Source: an uncultured Methanosarcinales archaeon
GTDB lineage: Archaea; Nanobdellota; Nanobdellia; Woesearchaeales; CAYVYK01
Direction of reading: 5' to 3'
DNA length: 24,457 nt
Assembly: GCA_964455675.1 (NCBI GenBank)
Contig: CAYVYK010000007.1
Coordinates: 1 to 24,457, forward strand
A program made the position numbers and the translations under genes. The notes under the pieces were generated by a model, which had not been told where the DNA came from, did no database searches, and worked only from the letters and a program-made list of their open reading frames with translations. Every line of letters starts with the position of its first letter. The first letter of the stretch is position 1. Below, one piece after another: positions 2,887-2,930 of the stretch.

Positions 2887-2930
2887 GGGACGGCAACGCG
2901 CCGTCCCACGCACGGTGCGGGACTAGTCCC
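2887..2930 (-). promoter_or_regulatory. Palindrome cluster immediately upstream of MVP
   Basis: Three adjacent palindromes: a perfect 8-bp hairpin GGGACGGC-aacgc-GCCGTCCC, a copy of the ACGCACGGTGCG core, and the 12-nt perfect palindrome GGGACTAGTCCC overlapping the stop of the 87-aa paralog A. The cluster lies 65-108 nt upstream of the MVP start codon. Confidence 0.5.

Follow-up and report, generated by a model that had tools for sequence, protein, structure and literature searches.

The 100-nt spacer ahead of a bacterial gene for the major vault protein (MVP) resembles a composite control region between two cistrons, in which an intrinsic terminator is combined with a lineage-specific regulatory box. 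We assign this reading a probability of roughly 50%. The spacer lies in a stretch of 24.5 kb (24,457 nt in full, hereafter the window). A credible internal terminator-like hairpin precedes MVP, and the box, a credible and lineage-specific element of the regulon type as judged from its sequence, is shared with six small genes located ~9 kb away, which hints at their co-regulation with MVP. The kinds of element are familiar; what sets this locus apart is that a lineage-restricted box links a bacterial MVP gene with six small genes in its neighbourhood. Such a cis-element, common to MVP and small genes nearby, provides a testable lead to co-expressed partners.

Palindromes in the spacer upstream of MVP

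The genes surrounding the spacer are all encoded on the minus strand, in the order paralog B, paralog A, spacer and MVP, and further small genes are found upstream of B, up to position 6385. The MVP homolog (24-2822, minus strand) is a protein of 932 aa with matches to the Pfam families MVP_shoulder (6e-18), Vault_3, Vault and Band_7. Its ATG start codon (2822-2820) is preceded by a ribosome-binding site, AGGAG (2831-2835, minus strand), 8 nt ahead of the ATG. Paralog A (2923-3186, minus strand) is a small helical protein of 87 aa with a IKYVLFDLEATRRE motif, and paralog B (3267-3527, minus strand; 86 aa) belongs to the same family. The spacer (2823-2922) measures exactly 100 nt from the TAG stop of A, which occupies 2923-2925 on the minus strand, to the ATG of MVP. 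Gene calling carried out independently on a metagenomic contig of identical sequence (L001) returned the same gene models, including the 932-aa product.

A sequence-only reading of this DNA had described three stacked palindromic elements in the region: a perfect 8-bp hairpin, a regulon-like core and a 12-nt palindrome over the stop codon of A. All of them are present, and each is larger than described. The 8-bp hairpin (GGGACGGC-aacgc-GCCGTCCC, 2887-2907) is the central part of a longer structure, P1 (2883-2911, minus strand). The perfect pairing reaches 9 pairs (TGGGACGGC/GCCGTCCCA), and 12-nt arms (2883-2894/2900-2911) pair with one mismatch. In the sense RNA (minus strand) this position forms a G·U pair, as against an A·C mismatch on the plus strand, with energies of -24.4 kcal/mol for the sense and -20.4 kcal/mol for the plus strand. 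On the sense RNA, P1 reads GCGUGGGACGGC-GCGUU-GCCGUCCCAUGC, a stem of 12 bp including the G·U pair, followed by UUUCCC (2882-2877). Directly after the hairpin comes the proposed core (ACGCACGGTGCG, 2908-2919). It contains the box CGCACGGTGCG (2909-2919; CGCACCGUGCG on the sense strand), whose invariant 9-nt core, GCACGGTGC, occupies 2910-2918.

The palindrome over the TAG of A (GGGACTAGTCCC, 2919-2930) grows to a perfect palindrome of 16 nt, P3 (GCGGGACTAGTCCCGC, 2917-2932, minus strand; -9.3 kcal/mol). P3 reads GCGGGA-CUAG-UCCCGC on the sense RNA (2932-2917), with the UAG stop of A inside the CUAG loop. A fourth element, P4, was absent from the earlier description. It is a perfect 8+8 palindrome in the MVP leader (GTCTCTAT-GG-ATAGAGAC, 2849-2866, minus strand; -8.5 kcal/mol), which reads GUCUCUAU-GG-AUAGAGAC on the sense RNA (2866-2849). 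The order on the sense strand is P3, box, P1 and P4, and among P1, box and P3 the neighbours overlap by 3 nt at each junction.

The spacer as a whole is unusually structured. Its sense-strand fold lies at z = -4.15 to -5.34 relative to shuffled sequences, and 0 of 200 shuffles fold as well; the antisense fold reaches z = -4.1, compared with -5.3 for the sense. Among the 20 spacers in the window it ranks as the second most structured. Three of the 11 distinct perfect inverted repeats of the window with arms of at least 8 nt are found here, within 84 nt. Palindromes with arms of at least 6 nt number 19 in the window, versus 15 ± 4 in shuffles.

The stop-codon palindrome alone is not significant, as 47 of 100 shuffles match it at up to 2 mismatches. 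P3 is made from the last three codons of A. The C-terminal tail specified by these codons shows no conservation within the family, which leaves the nucleotides free to vary. The palindrome is probably incidental; at most it would serve as a weak accessory hairpin of 6 bp. The spacer between B and A (3230-3260, minus strand) contains a CTAG-centred imperfect palindrome, GAATCCCCCTAGGAGGGGAATC (-8.4 kcal/mol), located 9 nt past the TAG of B. It is reminiscent of P3, which is likewise centred on CTAG and sits at the stop of A.

A dyad-symmetric box in seven intergenic spacers

The suggestion that the core belongs to a regulon-type operator finds support across the window. The 9-nt core is present in 8 exact copies, compared with 0.49 expected, and 0 of 100 shuffles reach this number. 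No excess of one-mismatch variants was found in the window. Seven of the eight copies are located in short spacers between co-directional genes, which constitute 8% of the window (P ~1.5e-7). The motif combines over-representation, intergenic restriction and dyad symmetry, the marks of an operator box. The eighth copy (15434-15442) is intragenic and has no symmetric flanks, and it may match by chance.

Apart from the MVP copy, the intergenic boxes occupy six consecutive spacers (11996-13993, plus strand), ahead of small genes without a recognisable family. The first, GCAAAGCACGGTGCTTTGC (11995-12013), begins on the last base of a stop codon and has different, yet symmetric, flanks. The second, GTGACGCACGGTGCGTCAC (12262-12280), is a perfect 19-nt palindrome. 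The sequence GTGACGCACGGTGCGCCAC is found at 12829-12847, at 13127-13145, where it is followed by the leader CAACAGCAAACGAGCAAACAA, and at 13928-13946, 3 nt past a stop codon; the remaining copy is ACGCACGGTGCGT (13644-13656). A 44-nt module, GTGACGCACGGTGCGCCAC-AACAGCAAACGAGCAAACAA, is present in three of the box copies.

The box core, GCAC-N-GTGC, is invariant, and the dyad reaches 13-19 nt in several copies. Its outer positions differ between copies yet stay symmetric (GTGAC/GTCAC, CAAA/TTTG, GTCCC-a/GGGAC). This covariation of the flanks is modest, with a score of 0.198 versus 0.078 that is reached by 2 of 500 shuffles.

The MVP leader belongs to the same leader family as the other box-bearing leaders, since it shares two further segments with them. 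In coding orientation, the MVP spacer has CGCACnGTGCGTG..AC.G.GCGTT in common with the spacer at 13621 (z = 5.1), and the segment AAACCAGTCTC-TAT-GGA with the leader of the gene at 13201 (z = 4.7, 0 of 300 shuffles). The arrangement differs: in the six other spacers a hairpin is followed by the box, whereas in the MVP spacer the box is followed by the hairpin. None of the six other spacers contains a terminator downstream of the box.

Read on the sense strand, the central base of the box is C at MVP and G at the six other genes. On the plus strand it is G in all seven intergenic copies (positions 2910, 12000, 12267, 12834, 13132, 13646 and 13933). The flank similarity of the MVP copy follows the coding orientation of the minus-strand genes, despite the plus-strand G at its centre.

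A homologous pair of long GC hairpins (58-60 nt; GGGCGGCGCCG...CGGCGCCGCCC, approximately -38.5 kcal/mol) is found at 12198-12255 and 12750-12812. Each immediately precedes a box copy, and the spacers that contain them, both of 145 nt, have rearranged repeat blocks in common.

Regulon operators are short, repeated, dyad-symmetric boxes ahead of co-regulated genes, for example the LexA, Fur and CRP boxes. The box described here resembles them in its invariant symmetric core, in its presence in several leaders and in its insensitivity to the central base. It differs in that its copies are placed between closely packed co-directional genes, some of them 0-3 nt after a stop. The box sequence matches no family found in the Rfam, plasmid BLAST or literature searches.

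The features of the box point in two directions regarding the recognised molecule. The invariant perfect dyad, the flipped central base and the lack of an RNA hairpin at MVP speak for a DNA operator bound by a symmetric dimer, and the flip at MVP would fit symmetric recognition of double-stranded DNA. An RNA hairpin is favoured by the symmetric flank covariation, by the predicted folding in six spacers and by the position of the boxes 0-3 nt after stops in spacers of down to 44 nt, where space for a promoter is scarce. A separate box hairpin is predicted on the sense RNA of the six other spacers, with a pair probability of 0.65-1.0. On the MVP transcript the ensemble prediction gives 0.0, making the MVP copy the odd one out.

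Most simply, the box would be the recognition site of a dimeric regulator. The seven intergenic boxes include the MVP copy and those in the leaders of six consecutive small genes (12.0-14.0 kb), and such a regulator would place MVP in a local regulon with these genes. Scans of the ~45 proteins of the window against Pfam, PHROGs and NCBIfam recognised no candidate regulator gene and revealed no HTH. A more specific version, which we regard as speculative, is that a regulator acting at the box, on DNA or RNA, couples expression of the vault-shell protein to that of six small, mostly membrane-type proteins and that its binding at MVP, the only gene where the box is wedged between two hairpins, modulates the terminator. 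If true, this would represent the first bacterial 'vault regulon', in a likely member of the Phycisphaerae, and would name candidate vault partners.

Alternatively, the spacer may act purely as DNA. In this case the box and four GGGAC/GTCCC pentamers would form an operator array that binds one or more regulators of an MVP promoter, with the pentamers arranged as GTCCC-N11-GGGAC-N11-GTCCC in 16-bp phasing, and the RNA hairpins would be a by-product of dyad symmetry. Such an array would account for the perfect dyad symmetry and the invariance of the core over 8 copies, as well as for the central base that is flipped relative to gene direction at MVP. The pentamers are mildly enriched in short spacers (9 of 48, versus 8% of sequence; P = 0.013) and recur in the box-bearing leaders. 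Their phasing, however, follows from the palindromes and is not independent evidence. The G·U pair specific to the sense strand and the UUU tail of P1 point to a role of the RNA, no promoter consensus was found in the spacer and no regulator gene was recognised in the window. We regard the array as possible but unlikely.

A terminator-like hairpin between paralog A and MVP

The palindromes had also been interpreted as a possible internal terminator or attenuator that would set the stoichiometry of MVP relative to the small genes upstream. The former is supported by the GC-rich stem-loop of 12 bp with its UUU tail on the sense strand. We applied the d'Aubenton-Carafa d-score to all single hairpins of both strands across the entire window; the scores were recomputed with ViennaRNA energies and the values are therefore approximate. 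Only 3 hairpins of the 24.5 kb exceed d = 0 on either strand, and all three are intergenic. P1 scores d = 12.1 in the sense and d = -42 in the antisense direction. The second, GGGGUCAGCA...UGCUGACCCC-UCUUUUU (9680-9709; d = 12.2), is a textbook-looking terminator after the gene at 9132-9662. The third (5506-5527, plus strand; d = 7.0) falls within the spacer at 5431-5716 (286 nt). The genes on either side are encoded on the minus strand, so that this hairpin is antisense to them and could end an unannotated plus-strand transcript or act both ways.

P1 has the stem-loop of a Rho-independent terminator, with a 5-nt loop closed by the 12-bp stem, and is correctly oriented, beginning 11 nt past the TAG of A on the sense strand. 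Its weak point is the U-tract, which is short (UUUCCCUC) and contains three U residues. While the tail UUUCCCUCAU has a T-score of 2.63 and the hairpin a d-score of +12.1, the simple rule of 5 T in 8 gives no call.

We infer that P1 terminates, independently of Rho, the transcript of the small genes located upstream, the last of which are B and A. A ribosome terminating at the UAG of A would not block its folding, since P1 starts 11 nt after the stop; when positions through +12 from the UAG are masked, the full 12-bp stem is still predicted to form. With only three U residues, P1 is probably leaky. A leaky P1 would lower or insulate read-through into MVP, or mark a stable 3' end. Such a terminator-like hairpin suggests that the expression of MVP is separate from that of the two small helical proteins whose genes lie upstream.

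It would be surprising to find a terminator directly in front of a gene that encodes a major structural protein, unless a separate promoter serves MVP. A scan for sigma-70 promoters found none in the spacer, where ~60 nt are left between P1 and MVP. A search by eye for common -10/-35 or ECF-like elements around the boxes gave inconsistent results.

Intrinsic terminators are known from inside operons, one example being the partial terminator ahead of rpoB in the E. coli rplKAJL-rpoBC operon. P1 is similar in that it is a GC-rich stem-loop with U residues, in the sense orientation, between an upstream cistron and a large gene, and its d-score is on a par with that of the window's best canonical terminator. 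Unlike these examples, it has only three U residues, the base of the hairpin overlaps a repeated palindromic box, and it is a candidate from sequence.

It is also conceivable, but we consider it improbable, that P1, P3 and P4 stabilise or process the mRNA without any termination. The hairpins would then shield the upstream mRNA from 3' exonucleases, or protect the 5' end of the MVP mRNA after cleavage, giving segments of unequal stability within one polycistronic transcript, as described for REP or intercistronic stem-loops. Stable sense-strand hairpins right after a stop codon are in line with this, and strong hairpins without U-tracts are present in several other spacers of the window. P1 differs from the latter by its proximal UUU and a d-score above 0. 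Stabilising and terminating roles of P1 are not mutually exclusive.

An attenuator in the strict sense requires mutually exclusive structures, and this part of the earlier proposal does not hold up in the folding models. As alternatives one could envisage P3 (1:2), an extended box hairpin, GUCCCGCAC-C-GUGCGUGGGAC (2:3), and P1 (3:4), with the translation of A or an RNA protein binding the box deciding whether the terminator forms, by analogy with trp-type or RAT/LicT-type control. The pairwise overlap of the three palindromes, the stop of A in the loop of the first, the conservation of the box across several leaders, reminiscent of RAT sites, and the sense-RNA box hairpins predicted in six other spacers would suit such a mechanism.

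The energetics, however, argue against the switch. At -6.3 kcal/mol and with a 2-nt bulge, the 2:3 hairpin is weak beside P3 (-9.3 kcal/mol) and P1 (-24.4 kcal/mol), and a pair probability of 0.0 is predicted for it. When the box stem is enforced, at a cost of 8.5 kcal/mol, P1 retains 9 bp. Co-transcriptional prefixes pass from P3 directly to P1 and never adopt the 2:3 hairpin. No sensing element emerged either: a ribosome at the UAG, masking to +12, leaves P1 unaffected, and Rfam contains no matching riboswitch or leader. The six other boxes lack a downstream terminator. RAT/terminator modules of the BglG/SacY/LicT type are established antitermination systems, and the spacer resembles them in that a conserved palindrome overlaps the 5' flank of a terminator hairpin. 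It departs from them in an overlap of only 3 nt, a box hairpin that does not abolish P1 and other copies that are terminator-less. We consider attenuation improbable, and favour a terminator combined with a regulatory box.

Distribution of the elements and other features of the window

The locus was found only as identical copies in two sequencing runs, and no orthologous spacer was present in the collections searched. MVP homologs are abundant, with 2765 matches, of which the nearest is ~40% identical and has unrelated neighbours. Gene order offers no hint of MVP partners, since the surroundings of MVP genes are not conserved. Bacterial MVP homologs are widespread and have been described (bioRxiv 10.1101/872010).

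The family of A and B comprises ~1850 proteins, mostly from Phycisphaerae and otherwise from other Planctomycetota, with an invariant IKYxLFDLEATRRE motif. Elsewhere, in Phycisphaerae genomes, its members adjoin DUF3553 and rpoZ rather than MVP, and the pairing with MVP is absent from the two other MVP loci and the three other loci of the A family that were inspected. Both paralogs are predicted to be largely a single long helix. An AlphaFold model of paralog A consists of one short and one long helix and is uninformative regarding DNA binding. Some records of the family are labelled 'transcriptional regulator', a name that no curated model supports.

A scan for the 19-nt palindrome returned matches in genomes (20 loci), metagenomes (27) and viral contigs (2), all single and chance-like with one exception. 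A 10-kb contig of an Isosphaeraceae MAG (DASZMJ010000072.1, locus L004) contains the exact palindrome GTGACGCACGGTGCGTCAC twice, at 2850-2868 and 4951-4969. Of the two, one comes after an integrase gene and immediately ahead of parA, and the other is located in the 3' part of parB. The palindromes of this contig may be parS sites or an operator of a mobile element. BLAST comparisons of the box module with plasmids, and of the spacer with phages, gave nothing meaningful, and a literature search for the core sequence returned unrelated primer matches only.

The Isosphaeraceae contig, together with the clustering of the box copies within 2 kb, could indicate that the box of the window has nothing to do with MVP expression and is instead a centromere-like (parS) site or a mobile repeat of the REP/MITE type. 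We find this very unlikely. The link to parAB is seen in no other locus: neither the window nor any other palindrome-carrying locus contains ParB or ParA, and the other genome, metagenome and virus matches are single and at chance level. Strict restriction to spacers and a directional conserved leader are not expected of parS, and the box sequence is unlike the canonical parS consensus.

REP/BIME elements are repetitive extragenic palindromes. The box shares with them the imperfect palindromes in co-directional spacers, often just after stops, and the predicted folding of the sense mRNA. It differs from them in that its copies are clustered locally at 12-14 kb instead of being dispersed, and in the absence of a GTAG head and of any RAYT gene or transposase in the 24.5-kb window.

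A chance build-up of palindromes in GC-rich non-coding DNA would suffice for the stop-codon palindrome alone, but is practically excluded for the spacer as a whole by its fold, by the copy number of the box core and by the local concentration of long perfect inverted repeats, all given above.

Two further element types were considered. Around the box and the long hairpins, inspection by eye revealed no R''/R' core sites (RYYYAAC ... GTTRRRY) of an integron attC, and the window contains no integrase. Rfam gave no match at the gathering threshold; the best sub-threshold match, PtaRNA1 (21.6 bits versus 47), is driven by a generic GC hairpin and was rejected.

Several other features of the window are worth recording. 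Between the minus-strand MVP cluster and the plus-strand small-gene cluster, the GC content falls to 45-52% at 6400-8400, compared with ~58% elsewhere. This stretch is probably a divergent control region and contains perfect inverted repeats at 6986-7010, 7765-7785 and 7880-7900. The longest perfect palindrome of the window, TGAAGTGCACGTGCACTTCA (20 nt, 8882-8901), is located within the coding region of the gene at 8478-9107. Tandem paralogous genes with N-terminal zinc-ribbon domains are found at 15706-16389 and 16441-17127 and have a 155-nt DNA repeat in common (72% identity). They are followed downstream by a VWA-domain gene and an OmpA-domain gene, while the other proteins of this island are without a family match. 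The most structured spacer of the window (22092-22174, sense z = -6.5) precedes the OmpA-domain gene at 22175-23743 and forms a 60-nt hairpin of -46 kcal/mol without a U-tract.
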